Program-made: the position numbers | Source of the DNA: an uncultured bacterium | GTDB taxonomy: Bacteria; Armatimonadota; Abditibacteriia; Abditibacteriales; Abditibacteriaceae | Length of the DNA stretch: 38,350 nt | NCBI GenBank assembly: GCA_963843795.1 | Contig: CAWJLW010000004.1 | Span: 62,001-100,350 of the forward strand | Direction of reading: 5' to 3' | Shown here: one piece after another, positions 1-21,000 of the stretch | How the letters are laid out: every line of letters starts with the position of its first letter | Position numbering within the stretch: position 1 is the first letter of the stretch

Positions 1-3000
1 CAGCAAAGATCGAACGCTTGAGCTTGTTCTGGGCTTTGAGATGCGAATGGCACGCCAGACCGATACTCGTTTTGCCGCTTCCGGTGCCGAGCGTGAACAT
101 CATGCGGCCCACAGCTTCGAGCTGTTTGATCGCGCGCTGACGCTTGATGTTATCGCCCGTGCTCATGTCGATATCACCCGCCGCCGCAGTGCCTTTGGTG
201 AGGTGGACATTGGGAATCAAACCTTTGACCATCGCTTCGGCAGCCGTTCCGAGGGTCACACGCTGGGTCGCCAGCTGTTGCCCCTGGGTTTGGGTCGCTT
301 CCTGCCCAAAGAGCGCGGCACCGCGATCCCGCTCGGCGCGCTGGTCGTCCAGTCGATCTTTGACGCCGCCTTCGGCGAACTTGCCGCCCGCGCGGTTCAT
401 GGCTTTGGCCTGCTCCGAGCGCGCCTGGGCTTCGACTTCGCGCCGTTTCTCAGGTGGTAGGGACGCCAAAAAATGTTTTTCGGCGTGCGCGACCGGCGTG
501 TGCACGGTTTTCCAATCGCGACCGGTCTGCTGCCGGAAGCCTTTGGCAAAGCGCGTGGCAAAGTCACCCTTCATGGTGTCGCAAATCGCCGCATAAGCGC
601 GCTTTTCGCCACCCATATCGCCCACATATTGCGCCCAGCGCCCGCTCGCGGTCGCCACGTTGCCCGCGTTGAAATCACCGCCAACGCCCGGTGTGCCAAA
701 CATCGTCGTATACGCCCGTGCGCGCAATTGCGCCTGAATGCGCGACCGCGCCTCGCGCGCGACAACGTTTTCGGGCCTGTCGTTTCCGGGCCTGCCGTCT
801 CCGGACCTATCGTCTCCGGGCCTATCGTCATTCGTTTCAAGTTCGGGCACCACATCCTGATATTGACCGCTGCGGGCATCCGTTACGCGCCGTTCGGGCG
901 TGTAACCGAGCGTTTGGGCATGGGCGCGCGCGGCTTCAATCACGGCACGGTCATCACTTAGATCCACGCTGGCAAAAGCGTGAGGCTCGGGCGCATCGCC
1001 GAACAAGCCGCCGCCGCTTTCCTCATCGCTTTGCTTCCACTGCGCTTGAATCGCGCGATAAGGGTCGCCCTCGGGCGCGCTGCGGGCCAAGTCGCGCCAC
1101 TGCTCCCACGCGCGGCGCTCATCGGGGGAAAGCGGCGAGATCGGCTCTTCACCGTTTTTGGGGTCGAGTCCAAAAACGTGCTCATAGGCGTAATCGCGCA
1201 CCGCACGCCGTCCGGCATGACCCAAATCGCCCACGCCGCCAAAGGCATGGCGAAGGCGCGGGTCCTGGATCGACACCTGGTGCAATAAGTCGCGCGTGGC
1301 ATCGGTCTGGGGCAGCGTTTGACGATGGACAGAAACCGCTTCGGAGGCGAGGCGACCGGCTTTGACTTCATTTTGCAACCAGCCCGCGTGATAGCCGCGC
1401 AAACGCTCATCCGTCAAACGCTTGTGATCGACCTGATCTTGTGTGGTGACACGGCGCGCTTGCCCGTCCAAACCGACCGGCGCTTTCATTGCGGGCACGA
1501 CGACATCGAGAGCTTGACGCCACGCATCATGCAAAGCGGGATCGACCTGGGTTTGGCGCAGCAGCTCCGAACGCAGCTCCGAGACCATCAGCGTCGGGTC
1601 TTGCCCGTGTTCAAAGCGCTGGGCCAGATTGTCGCGCATGATTTGTGCGATCTGCGGCACGCTGGCATGAGGAGGCAAATTGAACTGCAAGGCCAGCGGC
1701 GGCGGTGGTTTGATTTCGTCGCGCGATACGTCGATTTTCGGGCGACGACTAAAGCCCGCGGGCAGCCAGTTGGCTTCGTCGTGTTCACCAGCTTTAATCG
1801 CTGCGACACGCTGCAAACGTTCGAGATGCGCGGGATCCTCGTGCAGGGTTTGCGCGAGCTGATCCAAGCCCGAGGGATGCACAATCAGAATCTGGTTGTG
1901 GCCATCGGAATGCAGATGAAACTGCCCGGACTGAGACAGATTGCCGATGCTATCGAATGAATCCGGCTGTGTCAAACCACACGCCGCCGCGCGTTTGAGC
2001 GCGTCCGAAGTCGAGAGCGCGCCCAAAGCGATCTGCACATTGTCGTCGGAGCCGGCCGTTGGAGCCGTTGCCGTTGGAGTCGTTGCCGTTGGAAGCGCTG
2101 TTGGATTGTCCCAGCGCCCAGTTCATCGCCGCTGCGCCTTCCAAACGGCCCAGCGCCACACCCAACTGTTCACGTCCCTGGCGCAGCGCGTCCAAACGTT
2201 GCTGGTTTTGTTCGACAGCGGCCATACGAGACTCCATCGAGTCGAGAGGAATCTCTTCCATCTTTTCGGCTTTATCGAAATGTGCGCGCGCCTGTGTGGT
2301 CGCATCGTCGGCGATTTTGACCTGAGTTTCGACATGATGCTGTCCCAAAGCCTCGCGCAGACCATCGAGAGCCGCAGCATCGCCCGCCACTTGCGAAGCA
2401 ACTTGAGTTAAAGCGCGGTGCATCACGGCAGCCGTGCCCGCCGCGCCCAGAATATCGGCGACTAAGGGATCGGGCGCGCGCACGCCCAGACCGTTTTCGC
2501 ACGCGACTTGTCCCAGATGCGAAAAATACGCGTTGTGGCCACTCAATAGATGCGAGCGCAAGGGCGCGGCTTCGTCCTGGACATTGTACAGGTCGAGCAA
2601 ATCGCCCATCGCGCGTTGGCGGTTGCGTTCGCTGAGATCCTGGTGCACTTGTTCGCGCGCAGCTTCGGGCGAGAGTTCGGCACCGGTGCGCACGACGGCA
2701 GCGGTCGGCAGGGTGTCGAGTGACTTGGCGTCTTTGACGGCTTTGACAGCTTTGGCGTGTTCGCGCGTGGCAGAGATTTTGGCTTCGAGCTGCTTGGCCT
2801 GTGCCAGTACTTGGACGCGCTCGTGCGCGGTCATTTCTCCTGGTGTGGTATCGAGAGTTTTCAGGTTCTCCAGCGCGCCGCCACTTTCTCCGAGCTTTTC
2901 CTGGACGCGAGCGATGCGTTCGCGCGCGGCTTGTTGGGCCTGGGCGCGCTGTTGGGCTGCCCAGCGTTTGCTGCCCGCGCGGTCGCTGAGTTCGCTTTCG

Positions 3001-18000: not shown

Positions 18001-21000
18001 CGGGTGCAGCGCCTCATAGGTTAACTATGGCTTGGCATCAGCAACGGGAGAGAGCACGATGCAGCGCCAGAAGCGATCGACCTTCGATTGACTTCGCGAA
18101 CAAGAGGATGCGCCCGTTGCCGGTGACTATTTATCTCGAACAGTCTCTGGAAACCAGCTCTAATCGAAGAACACGCTGAGATTTCGACTGAGTGAGGGAG
18201 CAGAATATGGACACCACGTCGCCTCAATTAAGCACCTGCTATTGTCGCACCCGTCGTTACCGCACCTGCCTCTATCTCCGCTGTTCCCATCGGACTTGAT
18301 GTCAGCAAAGACACGCTCGATGTCTGTTTGCTGGTAAGCGGCAAGCGCCATGAAAAACAGTTTGCCAACGAGGCTGCTGGTCATCGCCAGCTTCTGCGTT
18401 GGTCACAAGGCCTGGCCAAGAACCAACCCTGCCACTTTTGTCTCGAAGCCACCGGCCCGTATTCGCAAGAGGTCGCGTTGTTTTTGGTCGAGAAAGAGCA
18501 AAAGGTGAGTGTGATCAATCCGGCTCGCATCCGCTTCTTTGGACTGGCGCAGAATCAGGGCAACAAGACCGACAAAGCCGATGCACGATTGATCGCTCAT
18601 TATTGCCAGATGCAAAGCCCACCGCCGTGGCGTGTTGCTGCACCCGAAGTGCGCTTGTTGCAGGAGATGGTGCGTCGGCTTCATGCACTGAGTGACTTAG
18701 CGGCACAGGAGAAGAATCGTTCTCAAGTGCCCGGGCAAAGCAAAGCTGTTGCGGCCAGCAGCAAACGGGTGGTGGCAGCCTTGGAAAAGGAACTGTTGCG
18801 TTTGAAGCGCGAAGTGCGCGCTCATGTCAAAGCTCACGCGGAGTTAGGGCGCGATGCCAAGCTGTTGCAAAGCATTCCGGGCATCGGCGAGATCACCTCA
18901 TGGGACGTTCTGGCCGAGATGCCGGATGTGACGGAGTTTGACAGCGCCCAAAGTGCAGCGGCTTATGCGGATTGGCTCCACGCGAGCAAAGATCGGGCAG
19001 CAGTGTGAGAAAAGCGACCACGCTATCGAAGCGTGGCAATCGTCGTTTGCGCAAAGCGTTTTACTTCCCTGCGGTGACTGCGATGCAATGGAATCCCCTG
19101 GTCAAAGCGCACTACGAACGAATGAGGGAAAAGGGCAAGCCCAAGATGGTGGCTTTGGCGGCGTGTATGCGAAAGATGTTGATGATCTGCTACGGAGTGC
19201 TCAAACACCAGAAACCTTTCGATCCATCTTGGTCGAACGTAGCCGAAACTTAGTATAAGAGACAAAATAACAGGCACAAAAAAACGCCAAGGGACACCCC
19301 TTGACGACACAGTCTCTTGTTACTGCGGTTGTTAGAGTTTAATGCCGTGTATTGGTCGGCATCGGCTCGATTCCACTCATAATCGCCCTATTGCTAATAC
19401 ATTTCATTAATACCCAATGTTTCGGGAGTAAAACTGCCGGACGCAAATAAAAGAATAAGCAATGGCGAAGAGAGCATAACTGAATCGTTCCACTTATCAG
19501 AGGACTTTGCAAAGAGGTAAATAGAAGCCGTTGCGAATCCAGCCATAAGGCAGATGCAAAAGGATGTTGGAGATCGTATGAAACATTTGTGTGAGTATAC
19601 ACTCTGCGTTTTTTCATCGCTAACGGACCAAGCCGCGCAGCATCGGCCTACTCAACTTTAGCTGCCGCCAACAGCGGCCAGAAATTGAATGGAGCAAGCG
19701 AAGTGAGATATCGCTGTTGGCGGTCAGATAAACGCTTTTTTGCTCTATATTTTTTTGAAGCGTAAGATACATCAGTGTCTAACAAGAGTTGAAGAAGGTG
19801 TAATTGTTTCAAGTTATCGTCGTGGCCAGGTGTGAATTTGACGAATATTAAAGAAAGTATCTGACGCACATCGCTAACTCTACTGTGAAACAGGGCCAGA
19901 AAGTGAATGGAACAAGTGAAGTGAATACCGCTGTTGGCGGTCAGATACAACGCTTTGTTGTGCGCTGATTAACGTTTGCGGTGAGAATCCGATCGAACTA
20001 TTTGAACGGTGAGTGCGAGCAAGCTTGGCAGTGTGCAAGTACCTGCGCCGCGCAATTTGAACAGAATTACCAAACGAAATTATAGGACGCACAACGCTAA
20101 GTCCCGCCGCTGGAAGCGCCGAGACCGAGAAGGCGAGTGAACGAGCGAAACGGCGGCGCTGTTAGGCGGTCGGGTGCAGCGCCTTGTTCGTGTGGCTGTT
20201 GGAGAGTCGACTTCTGCTCTCGGTTGAGTGCCAAATACAGCAAATGAGCGAACACTACGCTTGTGCCTTCTTGCCGCTAGACTATGAAATGAATTACTAC
20301 GACCTTCAGGCGTAATCTCTCTTATCGGTGTATGTCGACGCCACAATGCAGATGAAATGCTCTAAACTGAGAACCTACCAAGAATAGCAGGCTTTTGATA
20401 GTAATTGAGTTCCTTCACGCGAGTGAATATGCGATGAACATAGCTGACTCTATAAGAACGCGTGACCCAGAACATATGCTCGTATGCACCAATGAAATTG
20501 TCCATACTGCTCGCATTTTACATCAGCTTTCAACTTGTAGGTCTGGTTGTCCGAACTGTTGCGCTCTGAGCCAAGCCGCGAGCCGCCACACAACTACTTA
20601 TTATACGTGTTTTGCGGCATTTAATATCAAGCCGAAGCGCGAGCAAAAGAACATACATATTATCAGGAAAAATTTTCCTCATAACTCGATAATTAACGTA
20701 TTATTTCAAGACTATAATAGCCTGCGCATGGCTCGCAAAACCTTGAATTTGGCGTCGATGGACGCCTTATTTATCAAATTTCCACATCAATAAAGTTGGC
20801 CGGATTGTTCTTGGCGCGCGAGACGGCTTTGACATACACACCGGTGGTTTCGATGCTCGCGTGCCCCATCGCATCGCGCAAGTGCTCGACTTTGGCTCCA
20901 CCGGCGACCGCTAAGCGTGCCAAAGGTATGGCGCAGCGCATGGCAGCTCACACCAGCCCGCTTCAAGGCGCTTTCGTTGAGATAGCGGTCGATGACCCAG

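Follow-up and report, generated by a model that had tools for sequence, protein, structure and literature searches.

Clusters of attC sites without an integron integrase gene (intI) have been described as CALIN or SALIN elements (Cury 2016, PMC4889954; Neron 2022, PMC9024848; Loot et al., 10.1101/2022.09.11.507474). In the accessible text of these sources, either loss of intI or insertion events at attG sites are proposed as the origin of CALINs, which are also regarded as usable in trans. In the surveys (PMC4889954, PMC9024848) only attI sites of classes 1-3 could be searched for, and intI pseudogenes are given near 15 of 279 CALINs. Loot et al. state that attI1 was not inserted into genome sites at a significant rate. 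In Xanthomonas, truncated intI genes and extra CALINs are described, the arrays being frozen by inactivation of intI (PMC12444791). On mobile elements, a CALIN with its own attI is reported in the Shewanella prophage M16-3, together with other phage CALINs (Qi et al. 2023, PMC9892861), and class 1 integrons are reported on phage-plasmids (Pfeifer et al. 2022, PMC9600943; also PMC9892861). Elements of the IS110 family that sit at fixed attC positions, opposite to the cassettes, make up the IS1111-attC group (Tetu and Holmes 2008; Post and Hall 2009, cited in PMC11187229).

Here, two integron arrays are described on contig CAWJLW010000004.1 (C4), a phage-plasmid in the metagenome-assembled genome GCA_963843795.1 (G000; 92% complete, 11 contigs) of an uncultured, soil-type Armatimonadota host. 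Both are real integron arrays, and we consider it probable that they are headed by copies of a host-family platform that has lost its integrase gene and is likely frozen in this host. The window is the whole stretch analysed, C4 62,001-100,350 (38,350 nucleotides), with C4 62,001 as position 1; array 2 lies inside it and is given in window coordinates, array 1 lies outside and is given in C4 coordinates. As far as M16-3 is described in the accessible part of PMC9892861, C4 resembles it in having an attI-headed array without adjacent intI among phage genes, a toxin-antitoxin cassette and unassigned cargo. M16-3 is, however, a cryptic chromosomal prophage that also has a complete integron, whereas C4 is a phage-plasmid with two heads and likely intI stubs, an intI gene being absent from the element and not detected in the host. 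With the phage-plasmid class 1 integrons it shares integron cargo; those presented in PMC9600943 are transposon-borne, clinical and loaded with resistance genes, while C4 has non-clinical attC sites of the family type, no recognised resistance gene and no integrase. The genome-wide survey's note that pointed to these arrays had allowed that phage-borne cassettes are known elsewhere, which these published cases bear out. It had also found no report of integrons for Armatimonadota, and indeed no publication describing integron structure in Armatimonadota or Abditibacteriota was found, subscription papers and supplements being possible exceptions. The publications retrieved that join these taxa with integrons consisted nearly entirely of resistome or community surveys. 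Fimbriimonas was the sole match of four taxon names in IntegronFinder 2 Table S1, with no integron in it, and a phrase search for multiple or duplicated attI retrieved no publication.

The gene content of C4 combines virion and plasmid genes, in agreement with its earlier designation as a phage-plasmid. The backbone genes referred to below are, in the window:

5,839-14,698, minus strand: phage portal and intein-bearing large terminase
20,774-21,776, minus strand: Xer-like tyrosine recombinase of the phage-plasmid backbone (PF00589, XerC/D models)
21,773-25,951, minus strand: plasmid replication and partition genes (RepA PF10134, ParB, ParA)

Major capsid and tail genes are located on C4 outside the window, and the PHROG matches of C4 comprise terminase, portal, major head (phrog_752, E 1e-27) and a weak tape measure/tail. 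An Rfam search of the window returned tRNA only. Syntenic phage-plasmids were identified in four relatives, of which one was read whole as a 107-kb contig and three in fragments; the backbone slots that hold the arrays on C4 hold other cargo there, and neither attC nor head was present in the fetched sequence of the four. No relatives of the recombinase and the capsid were found in viral contigs. One public sequencing run shared 7% of words, and its contigs matched IS110 and attC fragments only. C4 has no terminal overlap and stems from a metagenome, which might suggest that it was mis-binned or is chimeric and that its arrays came from another organism that has IntI. We regard this as very unlikely, since its gene order is collinear with and circularly permuted relative to G023:C91, and since the palindrome typical of G000 occurs in 24 copies on C4, with its core in two gene-less cassettes, and in 0 copies on the related element in G023.

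The feature itself occupies only 17,289-20,780 of the window. Of the extent of 1..20620 assigned to it by the survey, positions 1-17,280 contain ordinary phage genes. Both arrays are each one cassette longer than had been recorded: array 2 extends to 17,289 by a toxin-antitoxin cassette added at its end, and array 1 has a sixth cassette past an IS110 element, at C4 47,054-47,669. From head to end, array 2 consists of:

20,728-20,769, plus strand: stub of 14 codons, likely the 5' end of a deleted intI; its homologue in head 1 (C4 51,474) has 21 codons
20,713-20,718, plus strand: predicted Pint -10 box TATAAT, facing the stub and placed as before intact intI in relatives
20,592-20,620, minus strand: attI-like site of head 2, with TATAAT (predicted Pc -10, 20,605-20,600), a 5-nt spacer and a G/TT crossover at 20,594
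20,186-20,594, minus strand: cassette 1, 409 bp, broken reading frame
20,085-20,200, minus strand: attC 1, 75.1 bits, training site
19,957-20,095, minus strand: cassette 2, 139 bp, without a gene, holding the host palindrome core
19,862-19,971, minus strand: attC 2, R' mutated to GAT, 65.8 bits, training site
19,642-19,753, minus strand: attC 3, degraded, end of the 133-bp cassette 3, 43.7 bits, non-training site, core match 2 of 12
19,319-19,624, minus strand: cassette 4, possible 92-aa ORF (19,339-19,617) without a family match
18,013-19,315, plus strand: IS110 type B, frameshifted transposase (PF01548 and PF02371)
17,915-18,012, minus strand: distal part of attC 4, 91% identical to attC 5 of array 1
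17,289-17,925, minus strand: toxin-antitoxin cassette, its final attC cut just past R'', core match 11 of 12
17,638-17,853, within this cassette: putative antitoxin, 71 aa
17,318-17,662, within this cassette: PemK/MazF-like toxin (PF02452, E 4.8e-8)

A covariance model trained on 8 attC sites of C4, which consequently match it by construction, located 9 sites on C4 (5 in array 1 and 4 in array 2) and 1 weak site on the chromosome. Independent support for the arrays comes from 25 of 26 family genomes, in which the C4-trained model finds sites, some of them beside true intI as had been claimed. Cassette starts in array 1 were complementary to their own R'' ends at 10-12 of 12 bases in all 6 cassettes. 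The core pairing reported by the survey's note holds in this form for array 1; the same comparison in array 2 gave 4, 8, 2, 6 and 11 of 12. Against mononucleotide shuffles, the attC sites had weak folding z-scores of -0.8 to -3.0. In array 2 there is partial degradation and decay, although some of this decay may be an artefact of the many frameshifts in C4, likely long-read errors. With attC clusters and no intI nearby, the arrays fit the CALIN class; where a complete integron has intI next to its array, only a likely stub of 14-21 codons is present here.

The insertion of IS110 elements in attC sites, recorded earlier, is supported by DEDD transposase domains and by matching junctions in relatives, and the C4 arrays carry two IS110 types with two targets. 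Type B lies between R'' and L'' of attC 4 in the target AACA-AG-GCGCTG, and its junctions recur in relatives, the 5' end at 3 loci and the 3' end at 2. The final 7 bases of attC 4 before GTT (17,932-17,926) are the end of IS110 type A, and in relatives an identical end opens type A copies both inside and outside attC sites. This end restores the GAG-7nt-GTT spacing and seems to have supplied the crossover at which the toxin-antitoxin cassette joined. The junction at an IS110-end GTT, and the 91% likeness of this attC to an array-1 attC, fit recombinase action after the IS insertion. A DEDD transposase at a fixed attC position, running against the cassettes, is shared with the IS1111-attC group as outlined in PMC11187229, from which C4 differs by its two types with two targets and by the type A end as an apparent crossover.

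Both arrays open with an attI-like head, as the survey had noted, with 70.7% identity between the two over 198 bp. An upstream-only attI matrix was unspecific (112 hits in G000) and was dropped for a two-part matrix, trained on 10 intI-linked sites and run with controls. Head 1 was the best match genome-wide (29.3 vs 16.0 for the next), whereas head 2 scored poorly (7.4); the presence of an attI site is thus suggested by homology, for head 2 by its homology to head 1. The -10 boxes predicted from the sequence stand at the expected Pc and Pint places, and TATAAT precedes ATG by 9 nt in head 2, by 7 nt in head 1 and by 7 nt in the same-genus intI. In register with the 5' region of that gene, head 1 shows TATAAT, 7 nt and ATG followed by 33 of 56 identical bases, and once a 1-base gap in a stretch of T is allowed for, it stays similar to the IntI N-terminus as far as codon 21. 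Ranked against the same-genus IntI N-terminus among 8.6 million six-frame windows, the head-1 peptide was in the top 8e-5 and the head-2 peptide in the top 5e-3. The stub codons of the two heads, counted by eye, were alike in 36 of 42 positions, with 4 of the 6 changes at third positions. Neither head was detected by an nhmmer DNA profile of 9 family intI 5' regions, the stubs were missed by low-stringency tblastn with IntI N-termini, and a degenerate stub pattern gave 0 matches in viral and metagenome contigs. Judged by position and one pairwise match, both heads likely keep a 5' stub of intI of 14-21 codons, and the combination of this stub with a predicted promoter would make them decapitated integron platforms.

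The absence of IntI from G000, claimed by the survey, agrees with a best TIGR02249 score of 85.7 bits against a cut-off of 265, and with tblastn searches using 11 family IntIs, whose best matches (about 31-35% over long stretches) were Xer-like. An intI gene may lie in unassembled DNA, as G000 is 92% complete in 11 contigs. Rather than in the 13 of 26 relatives given before, IntI was present in our sample in 11 of 24 family genomes and 13 of 40 relatives. The array platform starts a few bases past the stop of the Xer-like recombinase, which has a 1-base frameshift near its C-terminus. When this recombinase was tried as an IntI it scored 28.8 bits with TIGR02249 (cut-off 265) and was without the IntI insertion near patch III. 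Its place about 180 bp from attI and its co-orientation with the cassettes might invite the idea of a substitute integrase for the array, yet we find this hardly credible: the protein is Xer-like and lacks the IntI insertion, its relatives occur in 16 of 24 family genomes with an attI head after 0 of the 14 inspected, and array 1 has the same head without a neighbouring recombinase.

The survey's note had derived the cassettes from integrons of the family type. This is supported by the toxin-antitoxin cassette, which is 83-87% identical at the DNA level to cassettes located behind attC sites in G014 and G005, two genomes that belong to a different genus. The cassette ORFs scanned, the PemK-like toxin excepted, had no match in Pfam (one 0.075 hit), PHROGs or PADLOC. 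A 150-aa cassette protein has 3 unnamed homologues, and two others fall in unnamed ESM Atlas clusters only, with one weak lead to DUF7738 (42% of members). A 136-aa protein was not found in the 26 family genomes, and a 178-aa protein had 47-48% matches in 2 of the 26, neither of them lying within 1.5 kb of an attC.

Putative attI-headed arrays without an integrase are common on chromosomes of the host family. By a fixed rule, an attI-like head opens 18 of 56 attC clusters away from intact intI in relatives (8/19 and 10/37); in the controls such a head appeared on 1 of 57 strands opposite to clusters and in 2 of 1,000 random 3-kb windows. The 56 clusters were picked from listed hits, with loci cut by contig ends (L076, L132, L143, L144) excluded, and tblastn detected intI remnants at 5 of the 18 headed ones. 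In G007, two heads share the 4.7-Mb contig with its intI, and the single-contig genome G009 has four and no intact intI. Repeated horizontal acquisition of whole integrons, each followed by deletion of its intI, with neither copying within genomes nor later action in trans, is in our view doubtful. PMC4889954 names the loss of intI as one way in which CALINs come about, and accordant with it are the pseudogenes and long intI remnants beside L066, L072, L073, L075 and L129, the varying stub lengths, and an IntI tree that departs from genus (g1 sequences group with g5 ones at 100/100, g5 itself being divided). Against such decay speak a satellite head in G017 that shares 96% identity over 209 bp, including the stub, with the intI-linked platform of its own genome but leads into a different first cassette, the best match of heads to their own genome's platform in G017, G012 and G003, and the hybrid IS-end junction. 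A fixed cut site of IntI type for the copying was considered but found no support, since the stub break points differ between satellites. Nor does the route of Loot et al. by itself explain copied attI, given the rate stated there for attI1. Xanthomonas, as presented in the accessible text of PMC12444791, is like the host family in its frozen arrays after intI inactivation and its further arrays at other loci. It has, however, one ancestral locus at ilvD and no attI reported there at the extra CALINs, whereas in the host family intI has several flanking contexts and extra arrays are often headed.

The history of the C4 arrays, as far as sequence comparison allows, may be depicted as follows. 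Platforms would have been copied or left behind at many sites in the family, mostly behind genes of the same orientation and directly past their stop codons, and two would have landed in variable cargo slots of the phage-plasmid. Cassettes may have been loaded and reshuffled through attC x attI and attC x attC recombination by an IntI that worked in trans, either in a previous host or while the lineage still had intI. Expression of the first cassettes would be maintained by the predicted promoter that overlaps attI, which is likely why a head survives while intI is lost. Promoter activity, action in trans and the order of events are inferred here; the decay of array 2 and the lack of a detected IntI fit a frozen state. 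The survey's note had instead proposed that the phage-plasmid shuttles cassettes between hosts. In its adaptive form, in which attI docks are kept for harvesting with host IntI, we judge this proposal unlikely. In its favour are the two platforms on a single 100-kb element when the other contigs, 4.2 Mb in all, have just a weak head and a weak attC, the near-perfect cores of array 1, a toxin-antitoxin cassette common to another genus, and the differences between the two stubs, which hint at two separate captures. The four related phage-plasmids are, however, devoid of attC and heads in the sequence fetched, no near-identical cassette was found in the 26 family genomes (11 candidates per genome scored), viral contigs had no relatives, array 2 is decaying, and C4 bears the palindrome of its host lineage.

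Compared to the earlier note, the likely intI stubs in the heads and the frequency of headed arrays without integrase on family chromosomes are new. Prophage CALINs with attI and integrons on phage-plasmids were already known, and the interest of the present case lies in the dispersed layout of one IntI and many attI. Most CALINs have no visible intI pseudogenes, and attI was not searchable outside classes 1-3 (PMC4889954, accessible part); the family-specific attI used here indicates that, in contrast to what such surveys could see, about one third of the tested clusters keep a recognisable platform for expression and capture, in some cases recently copied from the genome's own integron. Heads that lack an integrase gene and are scattered over the chromosomes of relatives suggest that one integrase likely serves many capture sites. 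Tentatively, Abditibacteriota may thus possess a distributed integron, in which the attI-promoter platform, minus most of intI, is copied to chromosomes and phage-plasmids and one IntI loads all copies in trans, such that many cassettes would be first and expressed, and docks on phage-plasmids would sample the pool of each IntI-positive host. If the docks work in trans, they would bypass the rule that only cassettes near a single Pc are expressed. As the phage-plasmid indicates, mobile elements can acquire docks of this kind.

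Array 2, the integron cassette array of the phage-plasmid contig C4 that lies in the window, was delimited to 17,289-20,780 on the minus strand; the window covers C4:62,001-100,350. This part of the span assigned to the feature by the genome-wide survey's note stood, whereas window positions 1-17,280 were found to be phage backbone. The two arrays of C4 are composed as follows.

Window 17,289-20,780, minus strand: array 2, in order a head, G/TT at 20,594, four cassettes (409, 139, 133 and 306 bp), an IS110 element and a toxin-antitoxin (TA) cassette with its far end at window 17,289.
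C4 51,357-47,054, outside the window: array 1, six cassettes, the sixth past an IS110 element that splits attC 5.

With an attC covariance model trained on 8 C4 sites, C4 gave 9 attC and the chromosome of the host genome, G000, a single weak match. Of 26 family genomes, 25 also contained attC sites by this model, the largest number being at least about 74 in one genome among the matches listed (at most 137 candidates scored). In array 1 the six cassette starts were complementary to their own R'' ends at 10, 11, 12, 10, 12 and 11 of 12 bases; for array 2 the counts were 4, 8, 2, 6 and 11, the first of which is higher with a one-base gap. The model's sites and this complementarity bear out the reported arrays as real; attC folding z-scores were weak. 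Array 2 looks decayed, and assembly indels may contribute. The chromosome carries a relic at C6:2,099,124 (locus L045), situated behind a desaturase-like gene and made up of a weak head, a single gene and a decayed attC; a weak attC at C6:1,239,066-1,239,181 (L082) stands alone.

The insertion of IS110 elements in attC sites was likewise confirmed, with two fixed targets, type A (GGGTG-AG-CTTGG) and type B (AACA-AG-GCGCTG), and identical junctions in relatives. The GAG-7nt-GTT spacing is re-created by the end of type A. Array 2 retains nothing of type A but this end; the TA cassette is joined at its GTT, and the attC carrying the end shares 91% identity with attC 5 of array 1. The simplest reading of this hybrid attC/IS-end junction would be IntI recombination at the hybrid site together with exchange between the arrays, the alternative being a deletion at short microhomology. 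The TA cassette was 83% and 87% identical to cassettes following attC sites in the relatives G014 and G005, respectively. The array ends at window 17,289 and C4:47,054 are both at one attC position, the IS110 type-B target, and about 70 bp of a type-B end are retained at the far end of array 1, which suggests trimming by IS.

Heads 1 and 2, the attI-like starts of arrays 1 and 2, shared 70.7% identity over 198 bp, and on the opposite strand of each a TATAAT box precedes an ATG that opens a short reading frame. Head 1 aligned gap-free with the 5' end of a same-genus intI; the 7-nt spacing is equal, 33 of 56 bases agree, and once a one-base gap is allowed in a T run the match extends to codon 21. 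Among 8.6 million windows, the first 14 residues of the head-1 stub, taken at a predetermined position, ranked in the top 8e-5 and the head-2 stub peptide in the top 5e-3. Counting against the stub reading, both stubs were missed by a DNA profile and by low-stringency tblastn. On an attI matrix trained on 10 intI-linked attI sites, head 1 ranked first genome-wide (29.3; runner-up 16.0), while head 2 scored 7.4 and the relic at C6:2,099,124 10.5. Judged from these sequences, the heads are likely decapitated platforms with intI stubs. Head 1 is itself nested: at C4:51,537-51,590 (L001, outside the window) a second, degenerate attI-like unit is located upstream, joined at GTT exactly at the intI-stub end. 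In several family integrons (L010-L021) a -10 box lies about 7-10 nt ahead of the intI ATG, a spacing that suggests leaderless intI transcripts. In the relative G012, the predicted Pint and Pc boxes together make up a single 25-bp palindrome adjoining attI.

The claim that no IntI is found in the genome was upheld. In G000 (92% complete, 11 contigs) the best TIGR02249 score was 85.7 bits against a cut-off of 265, and 11 family IntIs used as queries matched only Xer-like proteins. IntI occurred in 11 of 24 family genomes and in 13 of the 40 relatives searched; Abditibacteriota is part of Armatimonadota in GTDB. The recombinase beside array 2, which ends about 180 bp before attI, was rejected as an IntI, being Xer-like and devoid of the IntI insertion. 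Its homologues turned up in 16 of the 24 family genomes; no attI head followed any of the 14 inspected. This recombinase family is also chromosomal in relatives (L026-L040), often ahead of a gene for an ABC-transporter ATPase; the G000 chromosome yielded no close copy.

C4 carries phage genes (two large terminases, portal, major head protein, weakly matched tail genes, a cI-like repressor and an O-like initiator) and plasmid genes (RepA, ParA/ParB and a resolvase). Its capsid was the same in four relatives; the 107-kb G023:C91, a whole contig, is collinear with C4 and circularly permuted, and G022, G008 and G011 contain syntenic fragments. No attC or head was present in the fetched sequence of these four elements, and the slot after the recombinase is occupied by other cargo in related elements. 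The G000 palindrome was present in 24 copies on C4, at 63 per 100 kb on the chromosome and not at all in the G023 element; its core is carried by two gene-less cassettes. Therefore, the phage-plasmid is resident in the G000 lineage, and carrying arrays is not a constant feature of its group. Active harvesting and shuttling of cassettes by the phage-plasmid, close to the survey's proposal of transfer between hosts, is rated as unlikely. The palindrome GCAAGTACTTGC occurred 2,275 times on the G000 chromosome, and the form CGAGTACTCG was present in loci of other genera and once in G000.

Further observations concern the backbone. A 2H phosphoesterase (window 4,553-5,215, minus strand) weakly matched Acb1 (anti-CBASS; E 5e-4, below cut-off). 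The large terminase (11,548-14,698, minus strand) contains a LAGLIDADG intein that, by alignment coverage, related elements lack at this position; another terminase-like gene (36,920-37,777, minus strand), unrelated to the first, is at the contig end. A tRNA gene (9,989-10,063, minus strand; Rfam 50.4 bits) lies between phage genes. C4:51,612-66,157, of which the last part is window 1-4,157, is occupied by methyltransferase and helicase genes of very large size (2,249, 1,188 and 735 aa); these presumably resemble DarB-type injected proteins, and the helicase part is kept in G023:C91.

Heads were also sought in seven relatives, in the 3-kb stretch preceding the first attC of 56 clusters that lie apart from any intact intI; the clusters were hand-picked from the listed attC matches, and four loci truncated by contig ends were excluded. 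A fixed rule (total > 11.3 and upstream part >= 10) assigned an attI-like head to 18 of 56 clusters (8/19 + 10/37), compared with 1 of 57 opposite strands (one G000 locus included) and 2 of 1,000 random windows; five of the 18 contained intI remnants. One satellite head of G017 was identical to that genome's own intI-linked platform, the master, at 201 of 209 bases, first intI codons included; it lies a few bases past the stop of another gene, and its first cassette differs from the master's. In G012 and G003 the best match of the heads was also their own master. G007 has two heads on the same contig as its intI, and the single-contig G009 has four heads and only intI remnants. By eye, most heads have a co-oriented ORF within about 330 nt ahead, and the break points of platform copies vary. 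In G017:C45 (L109 2,422-2,539), 118 bp identical to part of the genome's own master array lie in inverted orientation directly ahead of a short satellite head. A distributed-integron reading of the family is possible, though tentative.

Structure, homologies, distribution and the lack of a detectable IntI were observed directly. The scheme that we regard as probable as a whole is that platforms reached the cargo slots of the phage-plasmid, cassettes would have been loaded in trans by a host IntI, platforms may have been retained for the predicted promoter overlapping attI, and the arrays would now be static. Plain repeated arrival and decay, which overlaps with this scheme and accounts for some loci, is rather doubtful as the explanation.

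Qi et al. 2023 (PMC9892861) report 17 phage CALINs, a Shewanella prophage in which a CALIN has an attI of its own, and class 1 integrons on a P1 phage-plasmid. Elsewhere, loss of intI and insertion at secondary sites are discussed as origins of CALINs (PMC4889954; 10.1101/2022.09.11.507474), truncated intI with extra CALINs is described (PMC12444791), and attC-targeting IS1111 elements are cited (PMC11187229). Among freely accessible papers, those on integrons and Armatimonad or Abditibacteri were, judged by their listings, nearly all community or resistome surveys, and no paper on multiple or duplicated attI was found. A phage-borne CALIN with attI is a known kind in a new lineage; what is new here is that intI stubs probably persist and that attI platforms are dispersed and in part self-copied.
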